A DNA stretch of 63,999 nt, filler included, from Folioceros fuciformis (GCA_049999805.1; 5 parts of 4 records of this genome joined end to end with filler, not necessarily neighbours in it); one strand, 5' to 3'; shown: positions 4,043 to 63,999, counted from the whole stretch's first letter. The notes: a model not told the origin generated them from the letters alone. Numbers and translations are program-made.

Positions 4043-4298
4043 GATCTGCTGGTTGCTTGCCCCTCTCCTCCTCCTCTCTAGTGTATGCCCTGGCTATGCC
4101 CTCCTTAGCTCCCTCTCCACTGCTCTTTGCTCACGCTCCAATACTTGCTGCTGCCTCCTTACTTGAGCTTGAGCTCCCCCTTCAAAGCTAGAGTTGAAAT
4201 CTTCAGCTCCTATGCGGGGCATCCATCAACCCTGCCACATTCCCTTGTACAGTCCCCTATCTAGGTCAGTCCTCTCCAAACCTTGACAGCAATGTCAC

Positions 4299-7864: not shown

Positions 7865-7964
7865 NNNNNNNNNNNNNNNNNNNNNNNNNNNNNNNNNNNN
7901 NNNNNNNNTTAATTAATTAANNNNNNNNNNNNNNNNNNNNNNNNNNNNNNNNNNNNNNNNNNNN
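7865..7964. other. Artificial contig linker (N44-TTAATTAATTAA-N44)
   Basis: Identical stop-codon spacer recurs at 32665-32764, 49038-49137 and 61884-61983. Confidence 0.97.
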
Positions 7965-30017: not shown

Positions 30018-30447
30018 CTGGAGCGCCCGCTGGACAGGCGGATTGGAGCTCGGATGCGCATGCTCCTGGAAGACCAGGATCTGCGTCCCGGGGCGTGCGC
30101 TGTTGTTGTAACGGGGAGCGGGCTGGCACAGGATTATCATGTTACGGACAGTTAGCGCGGCTGCCTCTGGGAAGATGAAGTGGTTACTCTCCACCTCGGA
30201 TCTGGCTCCTTCCCTCCGCTGCGATTTCATGAAGTTTTTGAGGCTTGCTGGGCTGTGAGTGTGGGACAGCTCTCCCAGCGTTGGGAAGGGAAAACAGGGA
30301 TTTGGTGCCTCAGCCATGGATGCAGCGGATTTTGCACGCGGAGTGCTGGCGCTGGTGCTGATGCTGTGCAGCTGGAATTGACAGGCCTTGCGTACTTGGT
30401 TTCCGATCCGACGGAAGGGAAGCTGGGTGTGAGCGCAGAAGCTGCAG

Positions 30448-32235
30448 ATGCCGGGTCCTGGAATGCGGGGAGTCATGAAGCTCGTCTTCCTGCTCTTGCT
30501 GCTCTTGGTGAACGCGGGTGTGGGTTCTACGGCTTCGAGGCATCATCGCCACCACAGTAGGAGGACGCATTTCTTCGTGCAGGCGCCGAGCCCGAGTGCG
30601 TCACTCTGGGGTCCTGCTCCTCCGCCGACGCCAGGAGCTGACTATGTTGCGGTGCCGTTTAAGGATGATTCTCCTCCTCCTTCTCCTACTCCATCTCCCT
30701 ACGGTGAGTGGCCAGATCCCGAGGATGTAGAATCCCCGGATCAGGGGCCCTCGCCTGATCCGTCTTCATCAGGGCCTGCTCCATCCCCTATCATGCTGTC
30801 CTGGGGTAGCATCCTGCCCCCTGCAGATAGTGCTCTACCGCCTGCCAAATCCTGGTTTGAAATTCCTCCTCCCACTTCCGGGGATGATGTGCCTTCCCAG
30901 CATTTGCCTCCATCGCCCACCTCGGGTGGTGATGCTGGGCCTTCTTCTTCCCCCGGTGAATCGCCATCGGGGGCTGCTGCTCCGGGAAATGTTGAGCCCG
31001 GCCCGTACGCATCCCGGCCCGCTCCTCCGCCGGAGGAAGGAGCGGCCTCTGCTGTTCTGCCTGTCTATATTCCAAATGCTGGCATGTTGGGTCCTGACGG
31101 GTCTGGGTCTGATAGGCGGATTTCGGTGTGGGTGATGGCGGCGGTGGTCGGAACCGGAGCGGTGACGATGGTGGTGTTTGTTTCCGCAATGATCTTTGGC
31201 TACAGAGTGTTGAGGAAGAGGAACGGGGCGGCAGTGCGGCCTTGGAAATTCGGCATGAGCGGGCAGATGCAAAAAGCGTTTGTGACTGCCATCCCTGCCA
31301 TCAGCCGGGCCGAGGTTGAGGCTGCCTGCGAGGATTTCAGCAACATCATCGGGTCTTCACCGGACAGCGTGGTGTTCAAGGGGACTCTGGAGGACGGGAC
31401 AGAGGTTGCTGTGACCAGCATTCGAATCTCGGAGGAGTCGTGGACACCCAAGTCGGAGATCTTCTTCCGGCTGAAGGTGGAGAGCCTGGCGCGAATGAGC
31501 CACACCCACCTTGTGAATCTGGTGTCCTACTGCGCGGAGGACGATCCATTCACGAGGATGTTGATTTTCGAGTACGCTTCGAACGGAACATTGTTCGAGC
31601 ATCTGCATCGGAAGGGAGGGGATCCTTTGAGCTGGTCTACCAGGATGCGGATTATCATGGGAACAGCATACGGACTGCAGTACATGCATCACGAGCTGCA
31701 ACCGCCCACCAGCCATCTGAACTTCAACTCCAGTGCTGTGTACCTTACAGAGGACTTCGCAGCCAAGCTGGCGGAGTTCGGGGTCTCCAAGGCTGCTGTG
31801 GTGAGAAGTGATCGGAGGAGATTCCGCAGCAGCAAGAGCAGTGGTGGGATGGAGTACGACGACACGGAGGGTTCTGACAGGCACTCGCCGGACTTCGAGG
31901 AGAATGTGTACAACTTTGGAGTGTTCTTGTTGGAGGTTGTGACAGGTCGGCTCCCCTACAGTGAGAAGGAAGGATCGCTGGTAGACTGGGCTGGGCAGTA
32001 CATCAGTGCACCGGAGAACCTGGACTGCATGGTTGATCGGTCCCTGGAGTCGTTCGACCGGAGCCAGCTTCTGGCCATCTGCCAAGTATCCCGCCTTTGC
32101 ACGGACAGCTATCCTCATCGACGGTTCACCATGAAGGAGGCAACCAAGATGCTGGCCATGTCATTGAAGATCACGGCAGAGATTGCAGCACCCAAAGGCT
32201 CTTTGCTGTGGGCAGAGCTCGAGATTCTTTCTTAA
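30448..32235 (+). CDS. Intronless receptor-like pseudokinase with Pro/Ser-rich ectodomain (MRH1/MDIS-related kinase domain)
   Basis: Signal peptide (MKLVFLLLLLLVNAG), Pro-rich ectodomain, TM (VWVMAAVVGTGAV...), family motifs VRPW.GMSGQMQKAFVT, ELE-like EVEAACEDFSNIIG and C-terminal LLWAELEILS. Catalytic VAVK/HRD/DFG are replaced by VAVT/HLN/EFG. Confidence 0.9.
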   Translation: MPGPGMRGVMKLVFLLLLLLVNAGVGSTASRHHRHHSRRTHFFVQAPSPSASLWGPAPPPTPGADYVAVPFKDDSPPPSPTPSPYGEWPDPEDVESPDQGPSPDPSSSGPAPSPIMLSWGSILPPADSALPPAKSWFEIPPPTSGDDVPSQHLPPSPTSGGDAGPSSSPGESPSGAAAPGNVEPGPYASRPAPPPEEGAASAVLPVYIPNAGMLGPDGSGSDRRISVWVMAAVVGTGAVTMVVFVSAMIFGYRVLRKRNGAAVRPWKFGMSGQMQKAFVTAIPAISRAEVEAACEDFSNIIGSSPDSVVFKGTLEDGTEVAVTSIRISEESWTPKSEIFFRLKVESLARMSHTHLVNLVSYCAEDDPFTRMLIFEYASNGTLFEHLHRKGGDPLSWSTRMRIIMGTAYGLQYMHHELQPPTSHLNFNSSAVYLTEDFAAKLAEFGVSKAAVVRSDRRRFRSSKSSGGMEYDDTEGSDRHSPDFEENVYNFGVFLLEVVTGRLPYSEKEGSLVDWAGQYISAPENLDCMVDRSLESFDRSQLLAICQVSRLCTDSYPHRRFTMKEATKMLAMSLKITAEIAAPKGSLLWAELEILS

Positions 32236-32889
32236 ACGTGTGCGGCGATCTCAGCAGCTCACCATGCGGATGCGGGCGGCCTCCCCTTCTGATATGTAGC
32301 AAGTGATTAGTCCATCAATTGTACATACTTCGCTGCAACACTGGAAGGGAGCTTAGCAGAAAACCTGTACAACAGCACTCTCACGTCTTGCAGATTATTT
32401 GCAGTCCCTGCGGTGACAAAATTGCGCACATGCAGGACTCGTCCATCTTTCTTTCTATGGGGCGCCTGTAAAGTAGTCCAGGGAAGGGATCTGCTTTGGG
32501 TTGAGTTTCAGTTTATTCTTTCTTGGCTTGGCATCGGAGGTATGTCCCATGGCCACATCCAACAATAAAACCCTCGAAGTAAATGTTTTGATTTTGGGTG
32601 CCAGTGTTTTCCGATTTCAATAATTGACTGTTTCTCTCGTTCAAGGAGTGATCAGTTTGTAGAANNNNNNNNNNNNNNNNNNNNNNNNNNNNNNNNNNNN
32701 NNNNNNNNTTAATTAATTAANNNNNNNNNNNNNNNNNNNNNNNNNNNNNNNNNNNNNNNNNNNNCTTTGAAGGCTAGAAGCTTTTGATTTCATTAACTCT
32801 AAATGAATGTCCAACTTCAAATATGTTTCATAATCTGCCTAGAAATGACAAATCATGCATTATTATTCATTGTAACATGAGGGAAATAG

Positions 32890-42772: not shown

Positions 42773-45700
42773 TCACATCCGTGCGCCGTCTTGCATACAT
42801 CGCCTGCAGCTGCTACTCCAGCATTCTGCGATACAGGAGCTACTCCAACAATCTGTGCCAGTGGCTCCTCCCCAATCCTCTGCCACGGCGACTCCAGCAC
42901 CATCCTGTAATGCAACTGCTCCTCCACTATGCTCTGCTATGTCGGCTATCCTGAAATTCTCTGGTATGCCTGCTACAAAGCCCTTCTCCGCTGTATTGCA
43001 GTTCTCTGCTTCAGTGATGCGTTCCTCTTCAGACAGGCGGCTGAAGGCGTAGGCTCCCTGTGGAGTGTTGCCTCCCTGCTGGATTTCATTTCCCGGTCCA
43101 CGGTCCCCTGCGCCGGAATCGTTCTCTGCTACAGCCGATACCGAGCCTTCCTCTACTACAGCTGCTACTCCCGCATCCTGTGCTATAGCTGCTATTTGAA
43201 TTTTCTGTGGCCCGGCGGCTACACCGCCGTCCTGTGCTACAATTGCTACTCCACTATCCTCTGCTATATCACCCACTTTCAGATCCTCTGCTACACAGCC
43301 CTTCTCCGTTGAGTCTCCTTTCTCTGCAGCATCTGCTACACAGCCCCGATCCGGTGTATCGCATAGCTCTGCTACATCTGCTACACAGCCTTTCTCCGGT
43401 GTGCCGCATTTCTCAGCTGTATCTGCTACACAGCCCTTCTCCGGCGTGTCACAGTTCTCAGCTTCAATCATGCGTTCCTCTTCCGAGAGCCAGCTAGAGA
43501 ACTCCAGCGGTTTCTTCGGATAGTCTAGGAGAAAATTGTTGTCCACAAAAAAGCGAAGACACTGTAGAATGTGACTGTGGTCTCTTTGCACCTCAGGTTC
43601 CAGCAGTTTGGTCAACAGACTCGGCTCCCGCTGGGCTGGCACCTCCACCATCTGCTGGCCCCTGTTCTCTCGTCCCATGCCTTTATGCCTGGAATTACGT
43701 TCGTGGCGAAACTCACATCTCCATCCCTTCTTACACCGGCCTCTCAAAAAGTAGTGACAGGTCCGTGTTCCTTGCCTTGACTGCCGGGTGTCTGCTAAGT
43801 TGTCTGGTTCCTTACCATCTACTACCTCTGAAATTGGCACCACGTTACCACCTGCTATGGAAGTCCCACCCTCTTCGGCAGTGTCATCAACCTGAGAGTC
43901 ATTCTCTAGCCTTGCAACCTTGGCCGGCCTTTCTCCGTTCACACAATTGAGTGTAGTGTTCAGCGCAGTATCCTGCTGGATTCTCCTCTTCCCATTCACT
44001 CTGGTCTGCCCAGCAGGCCTGCGCCCAGCCCCATAAGTATCTCTCAACATGTAGTCTGGAACCTCAGCAACTGCACACCCCAATTGAGCTTGCTTTGCCA
44101 AAACCTCTTTTAATCTCTGCCAGTACAACAGCACATCAGTTAATAGGAGGACCATTAGGCAGCAAAAGATACTTTGCCACACAAGCAGGTCATTGCTATA
44201 AGTACAAACAGTGAGAACAGACACAGACCTCCCTCCGCTTGCAAGCCTCCTCATCCATCATCTCTCCTCTTGCTCTGCGGGCAGCTAGTTCTTCCTCCTG
44301 CATCCAGCTACAGAAACTCAGATACTCCACATAGAGAAAAGGAGAAACCTCTGCACAGCCCTGAGCAGGGTCATACCCTGCGCTTCACGTTGGCCACTGT
44401 AGGATAATTTTTTCGCCGCTCATCTCGCCATCGCTGTGCTTCAACTTCTGCTTCTTTGGAAATGGGCTTTCTGTAAAGATGGCATCAGCAAGAAACTCAA
44501 CAAACCAATTTCGTGATAAAGCCAACGTGAAAAAGACTCACTCCCATGGTACCTGGGTGCAACCGGCTCCAGAGATGGTTTCTTGCCATGTGTGACCTTG
44601 TGTTCCTTGACGATCCTTGCTGCTCCAAACACAAAATTTTACAGAGTACTTAAAACATGGCAGACTTATCGCACACATTGCACACTCGGATTGGGAGGAC
44701 GATATAGAAGAACTACGCAAATGAGCTCAAGGACCTGAGTTTGGATTATACAAGAAGAACCACAAAGACACATCTCAGAAAAGTCAGCATAGGTAGAGGC
44801 ATGCTTACTAGAAGCCTCAAACGTGCAGCCCTGTGCATCACACTTGACATGAGTGTTCATGTGCGCAGCTCTTTGCTGACTGCTAAAAAATGACCGATCA
44901 CAAGCTGCACAATGCAGCTGCCTGATTACCATGATAACCACACACACATCACAGAGAGACCTAGAAGGAAAAGTGCAGCCCCGGATAAGCGAATGGACAA
45001 AGCAGCAATCTACTCACTCAGTCCGCTTCTGGGAGCTCAACACATGAGGAACAGAGTTTTCTATTCCTCGGTTCCCTTCAGGTGCACTTCTCCTGGAACC
45101 ACCACCAGCCCCAGGATCCATGTACCCAAAATCAGGGGGCAACGGGTGAAACTGATTCGCTTCATGCGGAGGAGGCATTCCACCATACCAGCCTGGACCT
45201 GGTAGACCCTGACCCCATACTGGCTGCCCACCAAAATACTGATAACCCGGAGGAGCGGATGGATGGGGTGCACGCAGTAATCCCACACCTGGCATCATCT
45301 GTGGTGCCTGATGAGGTTGCTGCTGGAAAGCATGAGAATTCGTCTGATGCAGGCCATGACCATAGACAGGGTTTGGAATCCCCTCACGTGTCATCGCCAT
45401 ACCACCGTTGAACTGTGGCTGTGGTGGTCTACCCTGCGAGAAGCCACGGCTAGTCAAAATACGTACCGAAATATGACCAAATCCACATAGTCCTGCAGAG
45501 ATTCCCTCCTCACGATCGGCTTACGGTACCACACCAACACCCAGGCTCACCTGTGCAAACACACCTGATACCCAGCCCCTATTATCAGGTCTAGGGTTCA
45601 TCCAGCCCTGGTTCATGACTTCCCCACCCTGCATCACTACGCCTCCCTGCAGATACTCATACTGCCCAGGGCCCATTGGAACTCCCAAAGCCGGTATACC

Positions 45701-46687: not shown

Positions 46688-47922
46688 ATGGCATCCGTCC
46701 GGGCTGCTTGCCTCTCCTCTATAACCCTTTCATCTCTGGCTTCACCTTCTTCCCCTACCTTCTCGCTGCTTCAAGTAGGGGCATTAAGGTGGGGGCGTCT
46801 GCAAAGGACGTGGATAAGACGTAAATGTGTTCCAGGTGATGCCCGCTGCTGCCAGTTGGGAAGGGGTTCTCAGGAATCGTCCGGGAGGCGTGGGTTTCAT
46901 GGAGAAAGGAGGAGGCGAAGGCTGGCAGGGAGGTTGTTTTCAGTCAGATCAGCGGAATGGACGGATGCGGAATCGCCGTACGATATTCTAGGTATGGGCA
47001 GTGATTAGCTTTTGGTCGCTCCCTGATTTGGTCGGCTTTGGGCGTGCGGCCCGTGGAACAGCTATGTGAGTGGTATGTCTCGCATCTGGATGAAGGTGTG
47101 GAGAGGGATGTGAACGACGATGGAGTTAAGACTGCCTATCGGCGTCTTGCCAAAGTGTTTCATCCGGATGGTAAGGGCAGCTTGACTCTCATTCCTGCCA
47201 CGTGATTGGCAGTTCAAGTTGGATATCTTTCTGCAGACATATCTCAGTGCATGGTGGACATGTCCAGTGTATGATGGTAGCACAGAGTTACTGGACGGGG
47301 AAACAGCCGAAGGGCGATTCATCAAGATTCAGGCAGCCTACGAGCTGCTCATGGACAAGGATCAGCGCAGACAATATGATCTGGACCATCGAACGAATCC
47401 TATGAAGGTCCGATTCCAGCTCATGCCATCCCTGCTTGATCAAGACTGTATGAAGCTTCGTGCTTCCGGTATCTTCATCTAACATCCTGCTATTTGGAGC
47501 AGGCGTCAAAATCGTGGGTAGAGTGGGTGATTAAGAAGAAGAAAGCGTTCGAGCAACGTGGGGACATGGCTGTCTCGGCATGGGCGGAGCAGCAACAGCG
47601 GGAGATGAATTTGAAAGCTCGTCGTCTGGCAAGACATAAGGTATCATGTGACATGAAGAAACAACGCGGTCAATGGCGTTCCCTTTTCTCCAATATCTGA
47701 CAAAGTGTGAGTGTGTTGCAGATGGACGCAGAAGAGGAAAGGCGAATTCTGTCCCGAGAAAAGCAAGCTAGTGTTTCAAACTTTGAGACGACGGTGAGGC
47801 GGCATTCTCTAGTTTTGAAGAAAAGGGACATACTGAAAAGGAAGCAGGACGAGGAGGACAAGAAGAAGTTAATACAACAGCTTCTGGCTGCAGAGGGCCT
47901 TGAATTGGACGATGAGGTCTAA
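46688..47922 (+). CDS. Plastid-type DnaJ (J-domain) protein, 5 exons
   Basis: Transit-peptide-like start; SPYDILG/VERD...AYRRLAKVFHPD/VYDG...RFIKIQAAYELL; conserved tail KKAFEQRGDMAVSAWAEQQQ...LLAAEGLELD. Confidence 0.88.
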
Positions 47923-49137
47923 GGAGAACAGATGGAATGAGCTCACAAGTCGCAACATGTACATATAGAGGGCACAGTTGTAACATGGCTGTATTATAAT
48001 TGGCTTCGTAATTGGGGGTGTGTCACCGATTTTCGTTTCTGTTTGACGGTCAATGAGGCCTTAAGGTCTTTAACTTCCTTTCGACCCTCGGTTGTTCTCT
48101 TCTGAGGGTTTTGTTCCGCGCTAAGAAGTCTAAGTCGTGGTCTTTTTTATTTCTAATATAAGACCACAATCTATTTTCACAGAAAAGTATCAAAATGTAA
48201 TTGATTCTCCATTACTCTCCATTACTAGATTCTTGTTGTACAACTATTCCACTTTTAGTGATAAGGTGTTCGGAGAGACCACTTTTACTGATGAAGGCGT
48301 TCTGAGAGAGGAGGTCAGTAGAATTTTTTTTTGGGACTGTGAGTCTGTCCGCTTTGGGAAATGCTTTGGTAATGTCTAGCTCATAAAATAAAAATAAAAA
48401 TCTAAATTGGTCATTCGCACATTTGGTTGAAATATGATGAGGTTACATTCAAAACTTCAACAGCGCCATCCAAATTCTTTCAGCACCCTCATTCTGTCAG
48501 CACCGAATCTAGGCAAGGCATTGTCAGAAATCTATTTATACTATGAGCATAGTGATGGAATAGAACAGGCAAGACAACAAGTGGTGTCTATATATCATGA
48601 TCCAAAAACGTATAATATAAATAACTTGGGTTGTGGGAGAGGGTGGTGCCCCTTCACTCTACCAAACTAACCCTAACGAAAATTGTGTACTTATATAGAT
48701 AATGAACTAAGGGGTTATTTATCTTAATAGGAATGCCAGCTTATGTGGTGAATGGAGGTGTAGGTTGCAACAATGGGTTTTGGGTTCCTTTGGTTTGTGT
48801 TTGAGGCTACTTTGTGGATTCGCGTATGTACATTCGTAAACCCTAAACACCCTAAACCCTACCCTGAGGCTGCCATCCAAGGGGAGGGCAGCCCCCGACG
48901 CGTGCAAGGGAGCTCGGGGGAGATAGCACATAGGCCACCACTGCCTTGTAGGTTGAGAATGGCAGCCCCTGCAGCAAGCAAGGTGGCAAGCGGAGGGCGG
49001 CCCCCCGGGGGACTGTGGGGAGGTAGCACGAAGGCCANNNNNNNNNNNNNNNNNNNNNNNNNNNNNNNNNNNNNNNNNNNNTTAATTAATTAANNNNNNN
49101 NNNNNNNNNNNNNNNNNNNNNNNNNNNNNNNNNNNNN

Positions 49138-49603
49138 TAAGATGTTAGGCTGCTCACATGCGCCATAGCTCACTCCATGTCGTAAAGCTGCAAAAAGGGG
49201 ACTGCCCTCGTCGGGCTGCCCAGAGTTGGTAAGTCACTAGCGGGATGCCACCATCTCCCTTACACCCTCAATCTGCATAGCTCTTCCTTTCATAGACGGC
49301 TAGTGAACAGCAAACAAAGGTTTAGGTCGTCCGGTGGTTCCTCTCATGAGCGACTTCGACAACTGCCTTTTTTCTCGCTGTGTTTAGTTTTTATGTTTGG
49401 TGCCCCTCCAAGCAGTTTTCCATGGGCTGTATGAGCCCACGTGCTTCTAGTGGGCAAGTAGCCATGGCTAGTATTTTAGCCATTTACCTAATTTAGGTTG
49501 AGTTAGTTTAATCACCTATTATCTAATCAACTGAATTCCACTAAACTATCACGTTCACCATGATGCTCTACTATAAGTCCATTTTTGCCACAATTTCACG
49601 ACA
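49138..49603 (-). repeat. 3' LTR (last 8 bp missing at contig end)
   Basis: Aligns to 58366-58831 without gaps. Confidence 0.93.
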
Positions 49604-49805
49604 GCTGTCGTGCTCCCGGTATCAGCTGTTGTGAGCACTTCAATTCAGTCCATCAGCTGCAAGGCTAATGTCTTGTGCACTCAAAAAAAAAGAGAACAAA
49701 AAGATTGTCCATGCCTTCCCCCCCCAGTTGATGGACGGGCTGAAAGCATGAAGAGCACGATAAGAGCTACACTCCTAGGTTGGTCACACCTGCTGTGTCC
49801 GGTTG

Positions 49806-49940
49806 GCACTTGGGACAATACCAAAGTTGCTCCGGTACATGGGTAAGTGGTGGCTGTAAGCAGAAAAGGTGGAAACCCCCATTGCAGCCATCACAAAGTA
49901 ACATGAGGTCAGCATCATCAATGCGTTGACAAACCTGGCA
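49806..49940 (-). other. PHD finger (C4HC3) at the integrase C-terminus
   Basis: CQVC...LMLLCDGCNGGFHLFCLQPPLTHVPEQLWYCPKC. Confidence 0.92.
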
Positions 49941-52900
49941 AGGATAGTCCGCTGGTGGAATCCAATCTGCTGTGACAATAGAAGGATCAAGATTGGGCAA
50001 GTGGCAAGGTGCGCAATTCTTGGTGTGGTCAGTGGTGATCCGACCATCTGAGCCTTGCAATACCAGGATGCCATTAGGCTTGACCTCCTAAATCCGCAAC
50101 ACATGCCGACTGCTAGAAGTGTCCAGGGCATCTGAGGTCTGCCTCTGCAGGTAAACAAAGTCTCCTACCTGGAACTTCCTGAGCTTGGGCCTAAAACTGC
50201 CTCCCCTAGTGTGTGCATAACGAAGGGTATCCCTATGCTGGGCAATGTGCAAGTTAGCCATTGCCATGGGCATGGCCTGTTTGAACAAGGCTGCCCTGTT
50301 ACCTATCACACGTGCCCATGTAGCTGCATCATCCAGCTTGACAACTTCTAGCATTTGTTTGGCTATAGAACTAGGTGGAATTGGTTCTCTGCCAAACAAG
50401 AGGAAGTAAGGGGAAAAATGGGCAAGGGCAGCATGCTTGCTCATGCGGTAACCCATTGCAATATATGGAAGCATGAGATCCCAATCTGTTTTGGGTTCTC
50501 GGAGACACAGCTTGCGAAGCCCCTTCTTCATAGTCTGGACCATGCGCTCGGCTAAGCCATCAACCTGCGGGTGGTCCCGGCTAGTTCTCCTGTGGTCAAT
50601 AAGGGCTGCATCCATTAGATCCTGGAATTCTCCTCGAAACTCAGAACCCTGATATGTGAGACACTCTGCGCAGCCACCAAACCTACTGAGCACACATTGT
50701 AGGAAGGCTTGTGAGGTACTCCTAGAGGTCTTGTCTGGCAGGGCCACTACCTCCACCCACTTGCTGAAGTGTTCCATCATGATCATCGCATACAGGTTGC
50801 CTCGTGGAGACTGCGGGAGCTCACCCATCAGGTCGCATGACCATCTGAAGAATAAACCCATGATGGGCAAAGGGTGCAGCTCTGGGTGCTGCATGGTGAA
50901 GGAAGCCTTGACACGGTCGCATTGCTCGCAACAGGCTACTCGTTCCTTCACTTGTTCATGCATTCGATTCCAGTAGAAATAGGGAGTCAACAGGCTGTAG
51001 GTGCGTTTGACCCCAAAATGACCCATGTCATCATGCACCCTTTTGATGAGGGCAGCACGATCTGCTGGTGGGGGTACCAATCGCTCCACTCCTTGAGCCT
51101 GTTGACGGATGAGATGTCCGTCCCGCCAACAATACTTGGTAGCCCGTTGGTGAACTCGTTCCCTTGTGGCCGCGGTCCAAGTGGGGTCCTCTCTACCTGT
51201 CTGCACATACTGAAGGGTAGCTGGATCCTCCCAAATATCCTTGGAGGATTGCTGAGCTGCACCTACAGGCACCTGTCCCAAGCAAGTCATGGCCACCAGA
51301 GCCGATACGGCAAGCATTGTGCTGTACTCTTCATCTTGGCGAGCTCCAGTGGTATCCACACAACTGCTGTCAGGATTTCGTGACAAGGTATCAGCATTCT
51401 GGTGCTTCACTCCTGGCCGATGTTCAACCTGGAATTCGTAATCTTGAAGGATCATGGCCCAATGTGCGAGTTTGCCACTGAGCTTGGTGTTGGTCATCAG
51501 CCACTTGAGTGGTTGATGGTCTGTCACGAGTGTGAACTTCTGACCATATAAATATGGTCTGAAGTGGCACACTGCCCACACAGCAGCGAGGCATTCACCC
51601 TCGTAGCTGCTATAGTTGGCTTCAACTCGATTGTTGCTACGCAAGGCGTAAGCAACCACACGCTCACAACCTGCTTCATCCTGTTGAGCCAGCACAGCCC
51701 CTAGCCCTAGACTACTCCAATCTGTGTGAACTACAAAGGGCTTGTTAAAATTGGGTCTGGCCAACATTGGTGCAACTGTTAGCTCCAGCTTTAAGGTGTC
51801 AAAAGCTTGTTGTGCCTGCTCTGCCCATGTCCACTCTACATCCTTGCGCAGCAGATCATTAAGAGGCTTGGCAATCCTGCTGAAATTGGGTATGTATACT
51901 CGATAGTAATTGCATAACCCTAGAAATGAACGCAGGGCTGATACGGTGGTCGGTTCCTTAACCTGCATAATTGCCTGAACCTTGGCAGCATGTGGGGTGA
52001 CACCATTGGGGACAATTTTGTGACCCAAATACGCCACAGTGCTCATGCCAAACTCACACTTGGCTGGGTGGCACGTGAGTTGTGCCTTCCGTAATCTTAT
52101 AAACAGGTCTTCCAGGTGTACCAAATGATCCTTGAAGTCCATGCTGTGGACTAGCACATCATCAATGTAGCACATGAGATAGCCGGCTCCAGCTAGTACT
52201 ATGTCCATGATGCGCTGAAAGGTCACTGGCGCATTCTTGAATCCAAAGGGCATCACTAGCCATTCCCATAGCTGTTGAGAACCATGGAAGGCTGTCTTCT
52301 TGATATCTTCAGCTGCCACTGGGACCTGGTTAAACCCTTGTCGCAGGTCCAGCGTGGAGAAGAACATAGACTATCCAAGACGGTCAAAGATCTCCTCTGG
52401 TGTTGGCATTGGGTACCGATCCTGGGCAGTTACTGCATTGATGGGCCTATAGTTGCCACACATCCTCTTCTCAGTCCACAAACCCTGACTGTCCTTTTTG
52501 GGTGGCATCACAGTGGTAGCAGCGTAGTCACTGTTAGAGGGACGTATTAGGTTCGCCTCATACAGCTCCTTGCATCTTGCATCCACCATGTCCCATTCCG
52601 TCTTGCTCAACCTATACCGTCGCCTGTATACAGGCTCTTGGGTGGTAAGGTTGATGCGAAAGGTTGTGACATTGCACCTCTTGAGCTCATGCATGGAAAA
52701 GGCAAAACAGTCCCTGTACCTAAGCAGCAAGTTACGAATGCGGTCCTGTTGCTTCAGACTGAGTTCTGAGCCCATTTTCCACGGGAAATTAACAGCAGAC
52801 AGCTTGGGTGTAGCTCCTGGATCCTCCTTTTCTGCCTTGGCTTGATCAGATGCTGAGTAAATAGTACGTGATGCCAATACTGCGTACTCCCCCCCCCCAG

Positions 52901-53037
52901 CATCTAGCTAGAAAGGCAGCTGTGTGTATCCTGGGAATGGGAGGTGAACAGCATCTCCAGGGCAGATGCTAGCAAACAAGCCTGGGAGTAGCATGGGAGT
53001 GACCTGAGTGTGCAGCTGAAAGGCAAGGCACAAACTC

Positions 53038-53975
53038 ACCAACCATGTGATGGCATGGAGGTCCATGGCTCGTCCTAGAGTGCCCTTGCGCTGCCGATTG
53101 GTGACAGTGGGGGCCGCTGTACTATGGGTTTGAAAACCCATGAGTCGCTCTCGCTCCTCAACTGTTGGTTCTTCCCACCGTTGCGTTTCAGTATTCAATA
53201 ATAAGCCAGGTCCTTCTCCTCTGTAAGCAAATGAACCCGGAAAGCTGACCAGCGTGGGCAACGTCAGCCTTGGCTGACCTGGAATGTTGGTCTTGAACCA
53301 AGGGGCTTTCTCACTGGCCACCACAGGTCGTGGCTGGTGGTAGTTCTCCAATACAGTACAAAGTTGCAGCCCTGGATCCCTGCTAGTGTTCCAGAGAGCC
53401 AAGTCCAACACGGAGACATGGACCAAATTGGTCCAGTAGTTACGAAGCCTGTGGGCATAGCTACCCACCTGCACAGCATCCATGAGGAATGGTGGCCCTG
53501 CAAAATGTCGCACAATGGCCATATCCTGCTGCACCTGTGGCCGGGTATCAAACTGGGCTGGTGTGTTCTCGAGCAGGTATGCACATTGAGAGTTACTATC
53601 TTGTGCCCATGCCAAGATTTGTTGGAGATCTCTAAACAGACCAGAACGTGGATCTGTCAACCCTGCACCTACCCCAGCTTGAGAGAATCCTTGGCATTCC
53701 CAGCCAGCTATGACCATGTCGATGGGGCCCAAGGCTTGGATGTGGCCCTGCTGTATATACTGGACGTCCTGAGGTAAGGACGTGAATGTATTAGCCAAAG
53801 CCTCAGCTGACAATTGCTGTGGGAAACGATGTTGTAGACCCTGCAGCCGAAATGCAGCAATTTGCCTGGCAACGGGGTCTTTGTCACAGTAAAGGTACCT
53901 TTGAATGCTCAAACCTGTCAAGAGCAAAGCTTCTAACCCGGTACAAATACCACCAAACAGTTCAACGACTGTAAG
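53038..53975 (-). other. DNA (cytosine-5)-methyltransferase domain, DNMT3-like, within the polyprotein
   Basis: Motifs in canonical order: I VVELFGGICTG, II CDKD, III QDV, IV DMVIAGWECQGFS (catalytic Cys at 53696-53694), VI YLLENT, VIII DAVQVGSYAHRLRNYWTNL, IX ERERLMGF, X RKGTLGRAM. Confidence 0.9.
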
Positions 53976-56900
53976 GGCTAGCGCAGCCGGTGCCCATATG
54001 ATGACAGTATTGTCCACATAAGATGTGGGACAAGATGATAGGGTCCCGGCCTCCAACAATTGTTGCACCTTGCTGACCTGCTCTTGTGCCTTGGTCAGCA
54101 ATGCCTCTGCCTGCTCTGGACAGTCAGGCTGAACTAGAGCTTGCTGCAAACTAGTACACCTCACTTGGGCCTCTGCAACATTGGTCTCTAGATGCTTGTC
54201 CACTTGGTATGTGTCTTGGACAAGCTCCACCACATTGCTACTTTTGATACCAACTACAGCCGGGCTTTTCACCAAAGTGGCTACATCAACCTCCACCTGG
54301 CCATGCAAATCTAATGGCAGATGTGCAATGCGACGACCTCCTTGCTTCCAGTCAGGCCTATAGAAGGCTTGCTCAGTCCAGTTATCCACACCAACTCCTG
54401 GTGGAAAGAGGAACTCTTGCCCCAACAGCAAATCATAGTTGGTGGCTGTGGTTACCAGGCAGGGCAAGGACAATGTCATGGCATCTGGCGTGCCCGAGTT
54501 CAAGGTGATGTCCAGGGGTTGGACTGTCTCACCACAGACTGGTTCAACAGCCCCGGATGCCGTCCTGATGTTCCAAGGCGAGGTATGCAATGCATCACCC
54601 TGAAGATGCAACCTTGCAGCTAGAATCTTCCCAACGAGTACTGGTTGGGCTCCCGTGTCTAGCAACACCACTCTGGGTGCATACCCATTGATTGTGACGT
54701 GCCCACAACGATTGTCAACAACTGCATTGCTGACACGAGCTTGCAGTCGATTGGTGGACTGCACTCGCGGTTGGCTGTCAACTCCCTCAACTAGCTGTAC
54801 AGTGTAAGAGCCATTGCAGTGACTTGGTGCTGTCTGCCCACCTGTAGAGTGTGACATCGCTATTGGCAGCACCCATTGTGAAGTGTACGCTGTACCCAGG
54901 CTAGGGTCTGCAGATGCAGCCGTGGCTTCAGCAGTTTGAAGAACTTCCTTCAGCCTGCTGGTCGTGATGCCCATGTCCTGCAGTGTGAAAACTGGCACCT
55001 GAGTTAGCTTGGCAGCCAGTTGTGTGACTGTGGTGGTTTGGGGTAAGAGATACACATGCTCTGGTGTTGGCATGCTATGGCCAGGTGTTCTACTCGTGGG
55101 CAGCTGTTCCACACGCAGCGTTGAGTGCTCCTGGCCTCGTACCGGAATTGCAGACCCCGGTGGCAGCGGGGCAAAGGACTTTGGCATGGTAGCCCTAGCC
55201 CCTCGATTCCTGGTGATAGGCCCTAAGGCAGGTGCTATTGTTCCCATGACCACCTGTAAATTCTGCCCCACCCATGTGGCTGGCAACTCCACCTCCATGC
55301 TGCTCTCACCAATTCTGTCAACCATACATACTTGGTGTGCTGGGCCATAATCCTCATCCTCTGGTCCTGGTACCAACTTCACCACATTGGCTGGTTTGGA
55401 AGAGCCGGTGATGCTGGACAGGTTGGCTGTCAAGACTCCAAGTTGAGCTGTCATGGCAGCCATGGAAGCCTCAAGGGAGCTGACCTTGTCAGCAGTGGCG
55501 GCTGCCTTAGCCTTGGCCTTGTCACGCTGCTGCTTATTGCGGGACAACCCAACAACGCTCCTAGTTCCTCCTGCTTCCACACTAGCAATTGTGGCTCCTG
55601 CAGACCCTACGGTACCAATCTTCTGGTATCTTCGTTCGGGGTGCTTTTGGAAGCACACAGTAACCACGTGTCCATTCTTCTGGCAATGGGTGCAGTAGAG
55701 TCCCTCCGGAGGACACTTGCATGCAGGGGACATGTGCTCAGGGCTGCCACAATGGTTACACATGGCTACCACTGCTGCCGTTGGAGCTGCTGCTGAAGCT
55801 ACCTTAACTGGCTTAATCTGACCAGCCTTGGCTCCTGCACCTGTGTTAGCTGCCCCCTTGCTAGAGAACATGGACTGGTAGTGCGTGAAGGCCTTGGAAT
55901 GCCGAGAGGCATAGGCCGAAAAGGCTACCTCCTTCTTCTCAGCTTCTTCATGCACTTGCTCCAAAGTATACTTGTCCCCATATTTGTCCACCAAGGATGT
56001 AACCAGCTGGAAATGAAACAACGGGTCTCCTTCAAGTGCAGTCAAAAACCTTTGCGCTGCTTCCTGATTTGTTAACATCCCTGTACCTTCCCTCAATTTC
56101 TGTAGCCTCCTGAAGCACATCTGGACTGTCTCCCCCTTTTTGCGAGCAAAGGCAGCAAGTTCTGCAATTTTCTCTGGGGTCTTCAGTGGGAATGCCCTCT
56201 CCAAAATAGCTAGGAACTCCTCCACTGGGTTCAGGTACTTGCAAGTGTGTAGAAACTCTTGCACACCAGCTGTGGCAGTAGCCCGCTCTGCTAGTGTCAA
56301 ATTCACCACCGTTGGAAGTGGTGTGGTGGCGGAGATGGTCTTGGCTACAATCTCAGCCTGATGGTCATTAATGGCTGCTGCCAGTTTGGCATTATATGCC
56401 AACTGTAGAGCCGAATGATGGGCTGGGTTAGGAGTGGCAATTGTGCCCGATAGCTCAGCCTGGTGAGCCTCGTACAAATCCAATGCCTCATCTGCTAAGT
56501 AGCTGGACAACTGTTCAAACATGTACTGGTGGTTGTAGGCAGCACCATGTTTGAACTTCACCCTGCTGATGACTGCATTGATGAACAAGCGGAAGTCCCT
56601 TAAGGATTGGGTGCTTGGTCTGCCTGAGAATTTCTCAGGCCTAAACCCTGATGAACCACCCTCCATGGTGTCTGACCCTTCAGACAAGTCACCCAGGCCT
56701 TGCCCTACACCAAGGACAGACCCAGCAAACCCTGGATGTGTCTGCTGTGACCTCACAAATGATTGCTGTGAATAGAGAGACCCTTGTTGTTCAGGTTCCT
56801 CGTCACAAACTAGCTGACCCCCTAAATTTGAGCTAGTTAGCACAACAATCTTGCCCAAGTCTAAGAGGGGTGACCAGCTGGGTTGCCCAACGGATGTTGC

Positions 56901-57584
56901 TGGTTCCAAGTCCTCTCTCAAGTCTTCTTCACTTGCAAGTTGGCGTCGTCGAGCTGCCCATCTTCTCCTCCGTTGTGCACGCTCCGGTGATACCCTGATA
57001 GGAATGTCTCGACTCCTCAATCGGTAACGTAGGCTGGCCTCTTGCTGATCTGGTTGCATACCCCATGCACCCCTGTTACACCTACAGCTGGTGCTTGGCA
57101 AAAACAGTGAGGTGCTGTGCTGCAATTGACAACATCGGGCCTAGGGAAGTGACTCTCGCTGGGACACCACACACTGCTTCAGTTGTACCCACAGTACCTT
57201 CAGGCTTCTACTGGCTGTTGCTGGCCTCCAAATCAAACCCTTGTTCTCAAAGGCAAAACGAGCCCCTAAACATGTGGTTCGAACAAACCACGCATGCAAG
57301 AAATGAGGGTTAGCTCCTCCCAAATAATCTGATGGTGGCCTCCCTTCATGCCGCGTCTGGTCGTAGCTTACAGCTGCCCCCCACAGTCTGAATGAGTGTG
57401 AGCAAAGCTCAGCTACTCCCTATCCAGATAATCCTAGTTTGGGAAAATCCTACCCCTGGAAAATCTCAATTCCCTAGGCTTGCTGGGCAGGTGTAACTGT
57501 GATCAGAAAGCAAAGAAACACAACTTTCTTGGAGTACTGAGGGAACAAGAAATCTACCCCTCCCCAAAGCATCCATGATCAGCC

Positions 57585-57912
57585 ATGTCCCTCTTCCTGC
57601 AGTGATCTGATCCGCAGTGAAAATCTAAGATCAGTCCCTGGAATCAGCTTAAGAGTGAGCACAAAGCATACCAAAATGTTTGCCTCTACAAGAAAAATCT
57701 GTTGGTATGTAGATCAAAGGGAGCCAAGCAGAATTGCGGCCGTTATGTCCTCCTCTTGCAGTGATCTGATCCACACTGAAAATCTAAGATCAGTCTCTGG
57801 AATCAGCTCAAAAGTAAGCGCAAAACATACCAAAATGTTCGCCTCTTCACGAAAAATCTGTTGGTATGTAGATCTAAGGCAGACAAGCGGAATTGCGGCC
57901 GTTATGTCCTCC
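57585..57912. repeat. 159 bp tandem duplication in the 5' leader of the DNMT element
   Basis: GCAGTGATCTGATCC...GAAAATCTAAGATCAGTC...CATACCAAAATGTT...GAATTGCGGCCGTTATGTCCTCCT at 159 bp spacing. Confidence 0.9.
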
Positions 57913-58348
57913 TGAAGTTTGACTTCCACACCCTCAAACCCCAAACCCGAGGCTTAAGTGCGTCAAATGCTGAGCGACTTGCTGGGGCTGCCTCGATGTG
58001 GTCTCTTGGCGGTGCCTTAGCTGCCAGCTCTCCTAAGCCCTGTCTATAGAGCCTTGGATCAACATGTAGCTGCTGCGAGTAGAAAGGTAGTTGCTACAAC
58101 ACTGAGCATGCACATTCCAGACTCACGGCTGCTACAAAGGAAGAGAGGGATTCTCCAAGGCTGCTGCCTGAATGCACATGTCTGGCCGCGCCCCTAGAGT
58201 CCCTACAAACCCTAAATCCCTAGCAATGCAAAGGGAAAATGACAGACTTCACACAAACGGGTCTGGATGGGTGCTCCACAAATGCTGCCTTGCTGTAGCT
58301 GCTTGGCTGCGCTCTAAGAGCTCCTCGCCTGTGCCCTCATTGCCTGAC

Positions 58349-58598
58349 AAAGGTAGTTGTCGAAGTAAGATGTTAGGCTGCTCACATGCGCCATAGCTCA
58401 CTCCGTGTCGTAAAGCTGCAAAAAGGGGACTGCCCTCGTCGGGCTGCCCAGAGTTGGTAAGTCACTAGCGGGATGCCACCATCTCCCTTACACCCTCAAT
58501 CTGCATAGCTCTTCCTTTCATAGACGGCTAGTGAACAGCAAAAAAAGGTTTAGGTCGTCCGGTGGTTCCTCTCATGAGCGACTTCGACAACTACCTTT
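58349..58598 (-). promoter_or_regulatory. Self-priming signature: PBS/U5 junction complementary to the putative transcript 5' end
   Basis: AAAGGTAGTTGTCGAAGT (58349-58366) is the exact reverse complement of ACTTCGACAACTACCTTT (58581-58598). TATA-like CATAAAAA (58623-58616, minus) lies ~25 nt upstream of the latter. Confidence 0.7.
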
Positions 58599-58831
58599 TT
58601 CCTCGCTGTGTTTAGTTTTTATGTTTGGTGCCCCTTCAAGCAGTTTTCCATGGGCTGTATGAGCCCACGTGCTTCTAGTGGGCAAGTAGCCATGGCTAGT
58701 ATTTTAGCCATTTACCTAATTTAGGTTGAGTTAGTTTAATCACCTATTATCTAATCAACTGAATTCCACTAAACTATCACGTTCACCATGATGCTCTACT
58801 ATAAGTCCATTTTTGCCACAATTTCACGACA
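58358..58831 (-). repeat. 5' LTR (474 bp; TGTCG...CGACA termini)
   Basis: Matches 49138-49603; 5-bp terminal inverted repeat; similarity stops exactly at 58831, where an unrelated RT frame resumes. Confidence 0.9.
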
Positions 58832-59645
58832 CAAACAAACTGCTAGCCAAGAGAAGCAAGTGCGTTTTCATGAGGGAGAAATGTGAATACCTTGGCCATG
58901 TGATCAGTGCAGTGGGCATCCAGGTGGATACACGTAAGGTTAGCGCTTTGATGAACTGGCCCTTACCACAGGACATCACCCAGCTCTGGGGGTTCCTAGG
59001 TATGGCTGGTTTTTACAGGCGTTTTATCAAGGGCTTCACTAGTATTGCTATACCCTTGACATATGCTTTTAGGCATTCAGCANNNNNNNNNNNNNNNNNN
59101 NNNNNNNNNNNNNNNNNNNNNNNNNNNNNNNNNNNNNNNNNNNNNNNNNNNNNNNNNNNNNNNNNNNNNNNNNNNNNNNNNNTGAAAGTAGGAAGTTGAA
59201 AGGAGCACAACTGAACTATCCAATGCATGACAAGGAAATGCTGGCCATTACACATGCCCTAAAAGTTTGGCGACATTACCTCTTAGGACAGAAAGTGCTG
59301 TGTCACACGGATCATCCCTCCTTGCAGCACTTTTTCTCTCAGCCCAACTTGAATGCTCGGCAACAATGATGGGGTGAATCCCTTGTAGACTACCACCTAG
59401 AGATCCAGCATGTGTCAGGCTCGACCAAAGTGGTTGCAGATGCCTTGAGTCGGCATGCCTGCACCCTCCTGAAAACATAGTCCCAAATAGTTCAGTTAGT
59501 ACGAGATGGGATTCCCCATGACCCAGCCCTGTTGCAACTGTACAAACAATTATTGACAGATGCACAAATAGGGATCCCCACAGCACTTACCCAGAAGTAT
59601 TCCCTCCAGGACTCTTGTGTTTATAGAAAGGGGAGATTGATCAGA
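58832..59645 (+). mobile_element. Older degenerate Ty3/Gypsy RT-RNase H fragment (insertion target of the DNMT element); contains a 100-N gap
   Basis: NKLLAKRSKC...EYLGHVIS...[33 protein letters not shown]...HTDH; stops and frameshifts. Confidence 0.85.
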
Positions 59646-61720: not shown

Positions 61721-62190
61721 CTAGTGTTGATAATGATTAAAGGGTTTGTGCTATTAAGATAAGATATGTAGAGTTATGTTTAGAATATTTAAGTGACGTT
61801 ACATAAGAGTCACGTCTTAAGTGAACAACTACAACATTTCAGTTAGTTTAAGTTGAGTTTCATGTTTTATAAACTAAGTCTCTNNNNNNNNNNNNNNNNN
61901 NNNNNNNNNNNNNNNNNNNNNNNNNNNTTAATTAATTAANNNNNNNNNNNNNNNNNNNNNNNNNNNNNNNNNNNNNNNNNNNNTGAGCCTAGCCGCTATA
62001 AGGCATGGGGCGTAAACAAGAGCTACAAGAACAGCGAACTTGTACAGAGCTGACTTCAAATTGTCCCGCTCCATTGGGAGCCTATGCCACATAGGGTACA
62101 CACACACGCTCAAGCAAGAAGCCCAGCTGAACTCATAGTCTCCACAGGCTACTCGCGAAGGAGAAGACTGACCGACCCATAATAATCAAC

Positions 62191-62398: not shown

Positions 62399-62981
62399 AT
62401 AATATAGTTGTTTATTATAGAAATTGGTCTACACCAATCCAATCCAATATATGTCAGTGCCTTCGCTCTGATCGCCCGTCTTTCGCTCACGTCCCATCCA
62501 CCACTTCTACTTCTCGACTCCTCGGTTTCGTTCCTTTTCAAAAGCACCCTTGGACCCTCCTGGTCCTTACTTGGGGTTTTCCTCTACCCGGCCGTTTTGG
62601 TTCAGCTACCCATCGGAGCTCCACCACCAATTGTCTCCTCCATGATGGTGGTTCACCTTCCCGCACCGTTGCTAAGTCACGACTTCCTTATTTTCTAGCC
62701 TAAGTCCACGACCTTCCTCGCNNNNNNNNNNNNNNNNNNNNNNNNNNNNNNNNNNNNNNNNNNNNNNNNNNNNNNNNNNNNNNNNNNNNNNNNNNNNNNN
62801 NNNNNNNNNNNNNNNNNNNNNGTCCGGCTATTGGTCTACCTTGAAACTTCATGGTCCAAGGAGGTCTTGTGTATGTATACCCCTGCTTATTCTCAACTTA
62901 AGCCGCTTTCTCCTTTAGTTCACAAAAGAAAACCAGATCTAACACTTGGGAAGGGGGTTCTCAAATATTTTTTCCTCTACA

Positions 62982-63446
62982 AGCCCTCACTCACGGTAGT
63001 GTCAATCGAGAGACCTCACTCACGGCATTGCCAATCGGTCAGGGCAATGCCAATCGGGAGCCCTCACTCATGGCAGTGCCAATGGGGAGCCCTCACTCAT
63101 GGCAGTGCCAATGGGGAGCCCTCACTCATGGCAGTGCCAATCGGGAGCCCTCACTCATGGCAGTGCCAATCGGGAGTCCTCACTCAGGGCAGTGCCAATC
63201 GGGAGTCCTCACACACGGTAGTGGCAATTGGGAGCCCTGACTCACGGTAGTGTCAATCGAGAGCCCTCACTTACGGCAATGCTAATCGGGAGCCCTCACT
63301 CACGGCACTGCCAATCGGGAGCTCTTACTCATGGCGGTGCCAATCGGGAGTCCTCACTCACGGCGGTGCCAATCGGGAGTCCTCACTCACGGCAGTGGCA
63401 ATTGGAAGCCCTCACTCACGGTAGTGTCAATCAGGAGCCCTCACTC
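62982..63446. repeat. 29 bp minisatellite, ~16 copies
   Basis: GGGAGCCCTCACTCATGGCAGTGCCAATC repeated head-to-tail without spacers. Confidence 0.95.
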
Positions 63447-63999
63447 GGTCCCTTTTATCCACAAACAGGTTAGAGGTAGAGAAAAAAATTTCCTATACAG
63501 TATATATAGGTAGATTAGATGACGTGGTGAGGATAAATAGAGAAATATTCCGTTGATGTAATGGTATATTTTAATATAAAATATGTATTAAAAAATGAAT
63601 GTGTAATCCTATCCGTATCGGTATTCCATAGGCATGCACTTAAGGTTGACAAGCCTTAAATGAAATTCTTGTTTTTCTTATGGCGGGTGATAAGCAATTA
63701 ACTGTTTTGTATATCTAAAGTGAAACATAAAGTTACTACCTAATATCCGTCACATGGTCGAGTGGTCTGAAGAACCAGTCCGACAGGTCGCCCAAAGGTA
63801 TTATAGGACGGCTCACCCCTTCAAGCAGGACGGCTCACGGTTCACCCATTCAGGCTGCTGTGGTCATACATGCGTATGTACAGGGTACCCGGCCGGGGAT
63901 CCGCCTAGACGAGACTTTTGTTAGAGTCATCTTCCGACAGCGGTCCCTGAACGATGGCCACAGTTTGGCAACCGGACCTGTTGTGGACCCAACAAATTG

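Follow-up and report, generated by a model that had tools for sequence, protein, structure and literature searches.

Introduction

The closest described system to the locus reported here is KnitGypsy-Dnmt3 of the charophyte Klebsormidium nitens, a Gypsy long terminal repeat (LTR) retrotransposon whose Pol open reading frame (ORF) contains a Dnmt3-type DNA methyltransferase (DNMT) domain; in the sections of the report drawn on here, the element is intronless and present in multiple copies, with a DNMT Ka/Ks below 0.2 that points to purifying selection (PMC5890265). Our locus is a 9.7-kb Ty3/Gypsy LTR retrotransposon on the minus strand at positions 49138-58831 of a 63,999-nt stretch of DNA (the window; Folioceros fuciformis, GCA_049999805.1, parts joined with filler), and it encodes a predicted DNMT3-type domain between its protease (PR) and its reverse transcriptase (RT). 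Two retrotransposon-borne DNMTs of Symbiodinium, SymbioDIRS-Dnmt3 and SymbioLINE-Dnmt, were regarded by the authors of the Klebsormidium report as independent acquisitions; the former is likewise of the Dnmt3 type and carried out de novo CG methylation in yeast, and retrotransposon DNMTs were proposed in the same sections to methylate cDNA (de Mendoza et al. 2018, PMC5890265). The Symbiodinium elements belong to the DIRS and LINE classes and to another eukaryotic supergroup, whereas the window element is a Gypsy element of a land plant. The kind to which it corresponds has been named 'streptophytes (Gypsy-DNMT3)' in an excerpt of a recent preprint (10.64898/2026.05.21.726589). In the passages concerned, a later paper (PMC12344493), in citing the 2018 report, speaks of 'LTR Copia and DIRS families' where the 2018 paper says Gypsy (PMC5890265), and the part of PMC11982613 that was available held nothing relevant.

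Compared by published description, KnitGypsy-Dnmt3 and the window element are alike in carrying a non-rearranged Dnmt3-type domain in a Gypsy Pol, with a similar kind of constraint in the window element's family, and the window element fits streptophyte Gypsy-DNMT3 by definition, being a streptophyte Gypsy with a Dnmt3-type domain in Pol. The two differ in host, a charophyte in one case and an embryophyte in the other, and in repeats, which the Fig. 4c legend gives as DIRS-like for Klebsormidium (PMC5890265), whereas those of the window element are plain direct LTRs. In addition, the term 'PHD' has 0 occurrences in the main text of PMC5890265, whereas a PHD tail is a feature of the family described below. 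A full-text literature search, with subscription journals and supplements mostly outside its scope, returned no paper describing (i) an embryophyte Gypsy-DNMT3, in line with a preliminary description of this DNA that knew of no well-described embryophyte example, (ii) the PHD tail of such elements, or (iii) two DNMT positions and a variable residue before the catalytic Cys; a prior mention is possible. The Gypsy-DNMT3 kind is thus already published from algae, and what is new here is an embryophyte host with recent activity, together with a large green-lineage family, two DNMT positions, an integrase PHD tail, and a catalytic loop that keeps Cys and rarely Pro.

The methyltransferase domain

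The preliminary description, made from the sequence, had read the element as a land-plant Gypsy retrotransposon with a DNMT3-like C5 cytosine methyltransferase (C5-MTase) inside its polyprotein. Every motif that it quoted is present (LLDTGAQ, GWEC, ENT, AHRLR, ERLMGF and LGRAM); VVELFGG starts at 53969, GWEC at 53705, LLENT at 53576, AHRLRNYW at 53456, ERLMGF at 53150 and LGRAM at 53078, and the protease motif LLDTGAQ at 54665. Under the names that we take to apply to them, motifs I, IV, VI, VIII, IX and X follow one another in order, the Cys, Glu and RxR are kept, and the Pro of the canonical PC is replaced by Glu. The domain lies within a stop-free stretch of 1410 codons (52908-57140); the earlier description needs correcting in that the frame as a whole has three stops downstream of the domain. 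The PF00145 match proposed as a check lies above its cutoff (24.0 bits vs 22, E 3e-5) but is marginal, extending over residues 1125-1177 only (53 residues, motif IV). We base the identification as a C5-MTase on phmmer, profile and fold tests, because these are stronger than the PF00145 match.

The assignment to DNMT3 was made by comparison with solved structures at the levels of sequence, profile and fold. A 349-residue stretch (P0005, window 52995-54041), used as a phmmer query against all solved (PDB) chains, matched 44 distinct sequences at E<=1, the top 29 of which were all DNMT3A, DNMT3B or DNMT3C (best, DNMT3A, 7e-11), with M.HhaI next at 0.18. When a profile of 30 family members was searched against the PDB, DNMT3A (1e-25), DNMT3C (2e-22) and DNMT3B (4e-22) were matched; the same search found HhaI at 2e-10 and, by permuted alignment only, NtDRM at 3e-12 and Arabidopsis DRM2 at 1e-7, and DNMT1, MET1 and CMT were absent from it at E<=10. 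Profile positions 62-288 align in order to DNMT3A residues 4-200, whereas in the DRM chains positions 65-197 match the C-terminal residues 229-352, bearing out the earlier claim that the motif order is not permuted as in DRM.

An AlphaFold2 model of the domain, built on a 53-row alignment, has a pLDDT of 94.2 and a pTM of 0.92. Among the Foldseek matches listed, all were DNMT3 (best, DNMT3A, E 1e-18, target TM 0.84). Atlas look-ups agree at the level of a C5 methylase and add no more. An independent structural alignment (VIA) to 48,161 representative solved chains placed DNMT3B (Z 28.8, root-mean-square deviation 2.7, 277 aligned residues) and DNMT3A (Z 27.5) at the top, followed by M.MpeI (25.1), HhaI (23.4), DNMT2-type enzymes (20.7-22.8), DNMT1 (19.5), ZMET2 (18.7), DNMT5 (18.4) and MET1 (17.2). 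The matches in this alignment to 17 solved C5-MTase entries, at Z 17-29, take in residues 12-345 and so cover both the catalytic and the target-recognition parts. By these comparisons, the METHYLTRANSFERASE domain is predicted to have a DNMT3-type C5-MTase fold with the canonical, unpermuted motif order, and the DNMT3-like character first proposed for it is upheld by phmmer, profile and fold alike.

Host DNMT3A, DNMT3B and DNMT3C, which are the best matches by all three comparisons, share with the window domain a collinear set of motifs, the catalytic Cys, ENx and RxR. The resemblance is nonetheless distant, with an identity of just 20-27%, and the window domain has EC where the DNMT3 proteins have PC. 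It is also longer (349 residues aligned vs about 285), and the secondary-structure map of the model suggests that the additional residues fall between motifs VIII and IX. Unlike the host enzymes, it forms part of a retrotransposon polyprotein and lacks both a PWWP and an ADD domain.

Relatives and two positions of the domain

The search for protein relatives yielded 84 of similar length and 72 longer ones, the closest at no more than 55% identity. Those with names come from the liverwort Calypogeia fissa, from Closterium, and from the chlorophytes Chlamydomonas eustigma, Haematococcus lacustris and Cymbomonas tetramitiformis, and the remainder are mostly metagenomic; PR-DNMT proteins of Calypogeia fissa are 52% identical to the window, and no Klebsormidium protein is among the 156 relatives found. 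A profile search of 1.84 billion representatives gave 626 matches at E<=1e-30, 3212 at E<=1e-10 and 19773 at E<=1e-3, of which the tiers weaker than E<=1e-30 will include ordinary C5-MTases.

The domains of the window element were then located in all 272 proteins that gave a match to any of them. The layout RT-RNase H (RH)-DNMT-integrase (IN)-PHD was found in 147 (51 of them complete) and PR-DNMT-RT in 18, while 107 showed the DNMT only; both layouts were confirmed by Pfam on six examples. Both layouts share 45-51% identity with the window in RT-RH-IN and PHD, and in the RT-RH-DNMT-IN layout the DNMT sits exactly at the window's RNase H/integrase junction; therefore a single Gypsy backbone carries the DNMT in two positions. 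The chlorophyte and metagenome polyproteins (Chlamydomonas eustigma, Haematococcus lacustris, Cymbomonas tetramitiformis) have this same backbone and a homologous DNMT (35-41% identity), and differ from the window, in which the DNMT lies between protease and RT, by carrying it at the RNase H/integrase junction.

A DNMT tree of 81 rows (quick search, LG+G4) agrees with this division. Rooted on its sole outgroup, a more distant metagenome PF00145 protein (P0060), it unites the RT-RH-DNMT-IN kind as one clade of 61 rows (SH-aLRT 98) that includes all chlorophytes of the set; the window is among the other 20 rows, with all members of its own layout including Closterium, and its nearest neighbors are P0210 and P0006. 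An ancestral DNMT position was sought in this tree and not accepted, as the root is one long outgroup row and no order can be inferred from it. The chlorophytes form a sister branch on the same backbone, with the DNMT shifted to the point where RNase H meets integrase.

When metagenome contigs were scanned, 167 of 181 candidate stretches proved to be relatives, and 80 loci were kept: 26 have the full order PR-DNMT-RT-RH-IN-PHD, about 45 are partial in the same order, and nine have the other layout. The layout of the window recurs in relatives from a liverwort, in Closterium and in many metagenome contigs. Of the 74 metagenome DNMT segments examined, 65 are interrupted by in-frame stops or have a length not divisible by three, which suggests substitution-driven decay of many old copies in what seem to be one or a few eukaryotic host genomes. 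Those 65 segments (loci L001-L069, on contigs of up to 192 kb) have 1-16 in-frame stops each, and 10 of them are also broken in frame length.

The PHD tail

A PHD finger follows the integrase in most of the long relatives, and the polyprotein tails are 45-51% identical across the family. Its nearest solved counterparts are PHD1 of KDM5/Lid (5e-16) and the PHD fingers of KDM5D, CHD4, WSTF, UHRF1, KDM5A, BAZ2A/B, KAT6A, PHF21A and AIRE. Most of those fingers bind the unmodified histone H3 tail (H3K4me0), which is also what the ADD domain recognizes in guiding DNMT3A. By analogy, a parallel between the PHD tail and the DNMT3A ADD domain in the reading of H3K4me0 is a lead. A chromatin reader that follows the integrase as a C-terminal fusion, with a presumed role in targeting, is also described for chromoviruses in an excerpt of the preprint (10.64898/2026.05.21.726589); the reader is a chromodomain there and a PHD finger here. 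We found no match to the chromodomain profile PF00385 in the window element, in which the PHD finger takes that place, and among the 72 long relatives PF00385 occurs only in P0243.

The family in the host and decay of this copy

Read-assembled contigs from four sequencing runs were aligned to the internal region of the element. In the DNA run X1, 338 contigs lie on the element: 101 are at least 99% like this copy, 81 are 95-99%, 78 are 90-95% and 78 are below 90% alike. By this spread of likeness, the family has multiple copies, both young and old. The DNMT region is also covered by a diverged copy (record 3, about 87% identical, 126 differences in 956 nt), and the domain is therefore not private to this copy. 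Depth in X1 is about 250-320 for the near-identical contigs and about 9-12 for the diverged ones; this hints at tens of copies, but depth is no copy number and we claim none. Some X1 contigs have insertions or skips at the 159-nt duplication of the leader. No RNA run is listed among those that contain the element's words. A 9251-nt contig of run X3 covers the entire internal region and extends 292 and 198 nt into the LTRs; we considered it as a full-length transcript and drew nothing from it, since a repeat-bounded DNA assembly fits equally and the RNA label is a guess.

The two LTRs are identical at 461 of 466 positions (98.9%, ungapped, 9228 nt apart in the repeat search), in agreement with the earlier figure of about 99%. 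The divergence of 1.07% indicates a recent insertion, and with the X1 contigs that are at least 99% like this copy it bears out the recent family activity proposed earlier. The substitution rate of plants is about 1e-8 per site per year, which would put the insertion age on the order of half a million years, this rate being uncalibrated for the present host.

At all three in-frame stop sites, other copies have a different letter, and the stops are private decay of this insertion. Among the 40 listed of 125 differences from other copies, 31 are in frame (21 nonsynonymous, three stops and seven synonymous). Compared with other copies in X1 over 49604-58365, the changes from this copy's letter to theirs comprise 25 A>G and 24 T>C, and in the reverse direction 13 G>A and 13 C>T. 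The excess of A/T in this copy may reflect cytosine deamination in a silenced copy; decay at CpG was considered and set aside, only 3 of the 24 listed sites at which it has A/T for G/C being in CpG context.

Organization of the element and its surroundings

Features of the element and of two host genes in the window are collected in Table 1. Flanking direct LTRs and the pol order PR-RT-RNase H-IN, with integrase last, are those of Ty3/Gypsy, as originally proposed; the Pfam order on the one frame is aspartic protease, PF00145, RVT_1, RNase H, Integrase_H2C2, rve and PHD. Matches to PF00078, PF00665 and PF00628, which had been suggested as checks, were all recovered. The gag-pol frame opens at 57140, has its first ATG at 57059 and ends with a stop at 49767-49769. 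The RT is split by the second in-frame stop, and its N-terminal motifs were read directly in P0003. Pfam gave no zf-CCHC row at E<=0.01 for the gag knuckles.

The true end of the 3' LTR and the target-site duplication are hidden by the N run at 49038-49137. Visual inspection beyond the 5' LTR revealed no clear tRNA-complementary primer binding site, and the stretch before the 3' LTR is no more than weakly purine-rich. The string GGTATCAG beside the other LTR was considered as a primer site and set aside, being on the wrong strand and taken as chance. The element contains no inverted repeats of at least 30 nt, nor any DIRS-like split repeats of that length. There is no second copy or solo LTR within the window, and Rfam and tRNA scans of the window gave no matches.

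Table 1. Positions in the window of the parts of the element and of two host genes
Feature	Position	Strand	Remarks
5' LTR	58366..58831	-	466 nt; TG start on the element's strand; direct repeat of 49138-49603
Tandem repeat	57590..57907	-	2 copies of a 159-nt unit, 89% identity; leader between 5' LTR and gag (repeat search)
Single gag-pol frame, first ATG to final stop	49767..57059	-	four abutting open stretches, three in-frame stops
Two CX2CX4HX4C gag zinc knuckles	55653..55760	-	CNHCGSPEHMSPAC and CTHCQKNGHVVTVC; direct reading of the translation
Aspartic protease (LLDTGAQ)	54408..54698	-	PF13975 E 4.2e-7, PF13650 E 8.5e-7; residues 815-911 of P0001
Predicted DNMT3-type C5 cytosine methyltransferase domain	53004..53975	-	no stops; motifs I, IV, VI, VIII, IX, X in canonical order
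In-frame stop 1	52908..52910	-	between DNMT domain and RT; different letter in other copies
Reverse transcriptase	52014..52670	-	PF00078 E 3e-24, profile positions 69-205, P0002 residues 3-119
In-frame stop 2	52371..52373	-	inside RT; different letter in other copies
RNase H	51438..51827	-	PF17917 E 7e-37, PF17919 E 9e-33
Integrase, H2C2 zinc domain and catalytic core	50571..51074	-	PF17921 E 5e-17, PF00665 E 4e-9
In-frame stop 3	50088..50090	-	between integrase and PHD finger; different letter in most copies
C-terminal PHD finger after integrase	49806..49940	-	PF00628 E 4e-13
3' LTR	49138..49603	-	outer end abuts N run 49038-49137
DCL1 (Dicer-like 1) gene	9234-16679	-	about 15 exons, apparently intact; helicase, PAZ, two RNase III domains
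Protein kinase ORF	30433-32235	+	600 codons; nearest Atlas clusters are streptophyte receptor-like kinases

The host was placed by its DCL1 gene, which is collinear with residues 282-1984 of Calypogeia fissa DCL1. For one exon of 382 residues the best matches are three liverworts (77% identity), followed by a lycophyte (75%), a moss (74%), and then ferns and seed plants. A maximum-likelihood tree of 12 rows, a set without hornworts, places the gene as sister to the three liverworts (89/88) and inside a moss and liverwort group (86/87), neither branch being starred. On this evidence the host is a bryophyte-grade land plant, in accord with the land-plant origin originally suggested. DCL1 was read as belonging to the same scaffold as the element, with the N runs 20882-20981, 32665-32764 and 49038-49137 between them; the kinase ORF was read as gap-free with the element, and by coordinates the N runs 32665-32764 and 49038-49137 fall between. 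Four sequencing runs from four studies, all under one organism label, contain the element's words, and contamination is unlikely.

Directly to the right of the element, at 58837-59456 (+), lies a fragment of the RT and RNase H of another Ty3/Gypsy element, 34-35% identical to the element's RT and interrupted by a 100-N gap (59083-59182). A nested insertion into this RT was considered and not adopted: the left flank does not continue it, and there is no empty-site argument. To the left, at about 47005-47480 (+), short J-domain-like frames (DILG...YRRLAKVFHPD) may belong to a host gene, as may an ORF with a weak CCCH zinc-finger match at 42773-44257 (-). Other retrotransposon pieces comprise an ORF of 903 codons with a Copia-type integrase and RVT_2 at 46-2757 (+); there is also a gag ORF at 2957-4093 (-) and a gag/protease ORF with a zinc knuckle at 5692-6501 (+). 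A tandem array of a 29-nt unit occupies 62981-63502, where 12 overlapping copies of a 203-nt reference are spaced 29 nt apart. The N runs are of two forms, paired blocks of 44 N around 12 bases (7865-7964, 32665-32764, 49038-49137 and 61884-61983) and single runs of 100 N (20882-20981, 59083-59182 and 62722-62821).

Constraint and possible functions

In a 30-row alignment of the family, the catalytic Cys, the Ser four residues on, the ENx Glu and the AHRLR of motif VIII are invariant, and the Gln after the catalytic Cys and the glycines of motif I are nearly so. Compared with P0212, the DNMT is 43% and RT-RH-IN 51% identical; compared with P0210, the DNMT is 53% and gag-PR 32% identical. The DNMT is thus about as conserved as the adjoining enzymes and more so than gag. 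For DNMT segments of the metagenome relatives, the median pairwise ratio of nonsynonymous to synonymous substitution rates (dN/dS, Nei-Gojobori) is 0.37-0.43 at dS 0.1-0.4, a value taken over 1423 non-independent pairs with stops masked and diluted by post-insertion decay; no pair including the window passed the saturation filter. Since the nucleophile and the motifs on the cofactor side have been retained, we infer that an active enzyme with an altered catalytic loop is likelier than an inactive module.

The element is one copy of a multi-copy Ty3/Gypsy family of a bryophyte-grade host, recently inserted and since killed by three stops. In intact copies the DNMT would be made within Gag-Pol and travel with the RT and integrase. 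Using S-adenosylmethionine and its retained catalytic Cys, it would place 5-methylcytosine (5mC) on the new cDNA or on DNA at the integration site, while the PHD tail would tether the integration complex to a state of the histone H3 tail, a role like that of the chromodomain in chromoviruses. On arrival, a new copy would then bear the marks of resident heterochromatin, and such pre-marking might either shield it from surveillance directed at unmethylated incoming DNA or reduce the damage to the host. Taken together, this account of the element and the self-methylation that we propose for its family seem to us to have a slightly better than even prospect of being right.

Several observations weigh against that account. 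Working C5-MTases almost invariably have the Pro of PC, whereas the family loop keeps the Cys and rarely the Pro: this copy has Glu in its place (GWEC), and a loose pattern search of 237 family proteins counted EC in 85, LC in 42, PC in 37, MC in 21, IC in 18, other residues in 11 and no match in 23. The PF00145 match by itself is marginal and partial, and the dN/dS values come from relatives and not from the host's own copies. This copy is dead, as its three in-frame stops downstream of the DNMT domain leave no RT, integrase or PHD finger makeable, and the spectrum of its differences looks like neutral decay after insertion, an observation about this copy and not the family. Catalysis by Gypsy-DNMT3 is a proposal, and the same goes for release by the protease, for packaging, for cDNA, target DNA or RNA as the substrate, and for the specificity of the PHD finger. 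Finally, in the sections of the 2018 report cited above, the Klebsormidium Gypsy-DNMT3 domain gave no detectable methylation in yeast, a result that its authors judged inconclusive, as human DNMT3B likewise failed in the same assay (PMC5890265).

The same yeast result, and the GWEC of this copy in a family with PC in only 37 of 237 proteins, would suit a domain that no longer methylates and instead binds DNA or has a structural or recruiting role, comparable to that of DNMT3L toward DNMT3A; it could, for instance, bring host methyltransferases or chromatin factors to the pre-integration complex. A fold match to DNMT3L exists but is weak (Z 10.9-11.1), and an inactive domain would be expected to lose the Cys, the following Gln, the ENx Glu, the RxR of motif VIII and the motif I glycines, all of which are kept; the failure of human DNMT3B in that assay (PMC5890265) likewise blunts the comparison with Klebsormidium. 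We regard a non-methylating module as unlikely, though worth serious attention. The altered loop would also be compatible with methylation of RNA in the manner of DNMT2, the target being the element's genomic RNA or its primer tRNA, which would be stabilized or marked. Methylation of RNA was raised for the LINE-borne DNMT by de Mendoza et al., in the sections consulted (PMC5890265), and DNMT2-type folds do match (EhMeth, Z 22.8; S. pombe Dnmt2, Z 21.8). In sequence, however, DNMT2 falls far behind DNMT3, at E 0.45 vs 7e-11 for the single sequence and 1e-4 vs 1e-25 for the profile. The RxR and the target-recognition region moreover align with what we take to be the DNA-contacting parts of DNMT3A, and RNA as the substrate appears improbable to us.

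A different kind of explanation would make the DNMT a one-off capture of a host gene, or the locus algal or other contaminant DNA or an assembly chimera. The 100-N gap at 20882-20981 between the DCL1 gene and the element would leave room for this, and the nearest named algal relatives are those of Closterium. Against it, the DNMT is covered by contigs of the same organism label that are at least 99% identical as well as by the copy diverged to about 87%, and the element's words recur in four runs of four studies under that one label. The streptophyte-type kinase ORF, read as linked to the element with N runs between by coordinates, the Calypogeia fissa PR-DNMT proteins at 52% identity, and the full domain order in 26 of the 80 metagenome loci all speak in the same direction, and we consider capture, contamination or chimerism largely refuted and very improbable.

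Significance

Going beyond self-methylation as favored above, an active DNMT3-type enzyme with Cys but no Pro, joined to an integrase PHD finger that reads H3K4me0, might form a self-contained unit of de novo methylation in a recently active land-plant lineage. Such a unit would write 5mC into its own cDNA or at its insertion site without recourse to host RNA-directed DNA methylation, CMT or DNMT3, and by analogy its logic would be that of the ADD and methyltransferase domains of DNMT3A; the module would have passed vertically from green algae to bryophytes and moved within the polyprotein at least once. We offer this wider proposal tentatively, as a possibility rather more doubtful than not.

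Cytosine methylation is the main means by which plants silence transposons, and a transposon that carries its own methylation writer turns the customary roles around. The cases published so far are from algae, and activity has been demonstrated for the dinoflagellate DIRS element only; Gypsy-DNMT3 is now found in a land plant, where the pathways of methylation and the genetics are better understood. The DNMT domain of this copy, intact and confidently folding, is a natural sequence for assay, and the two DNMT positions and the variable residue before the catalytic Cys bear on the mechanism of the enzyme and on how retrotransposons shuffle the domains that they capture.

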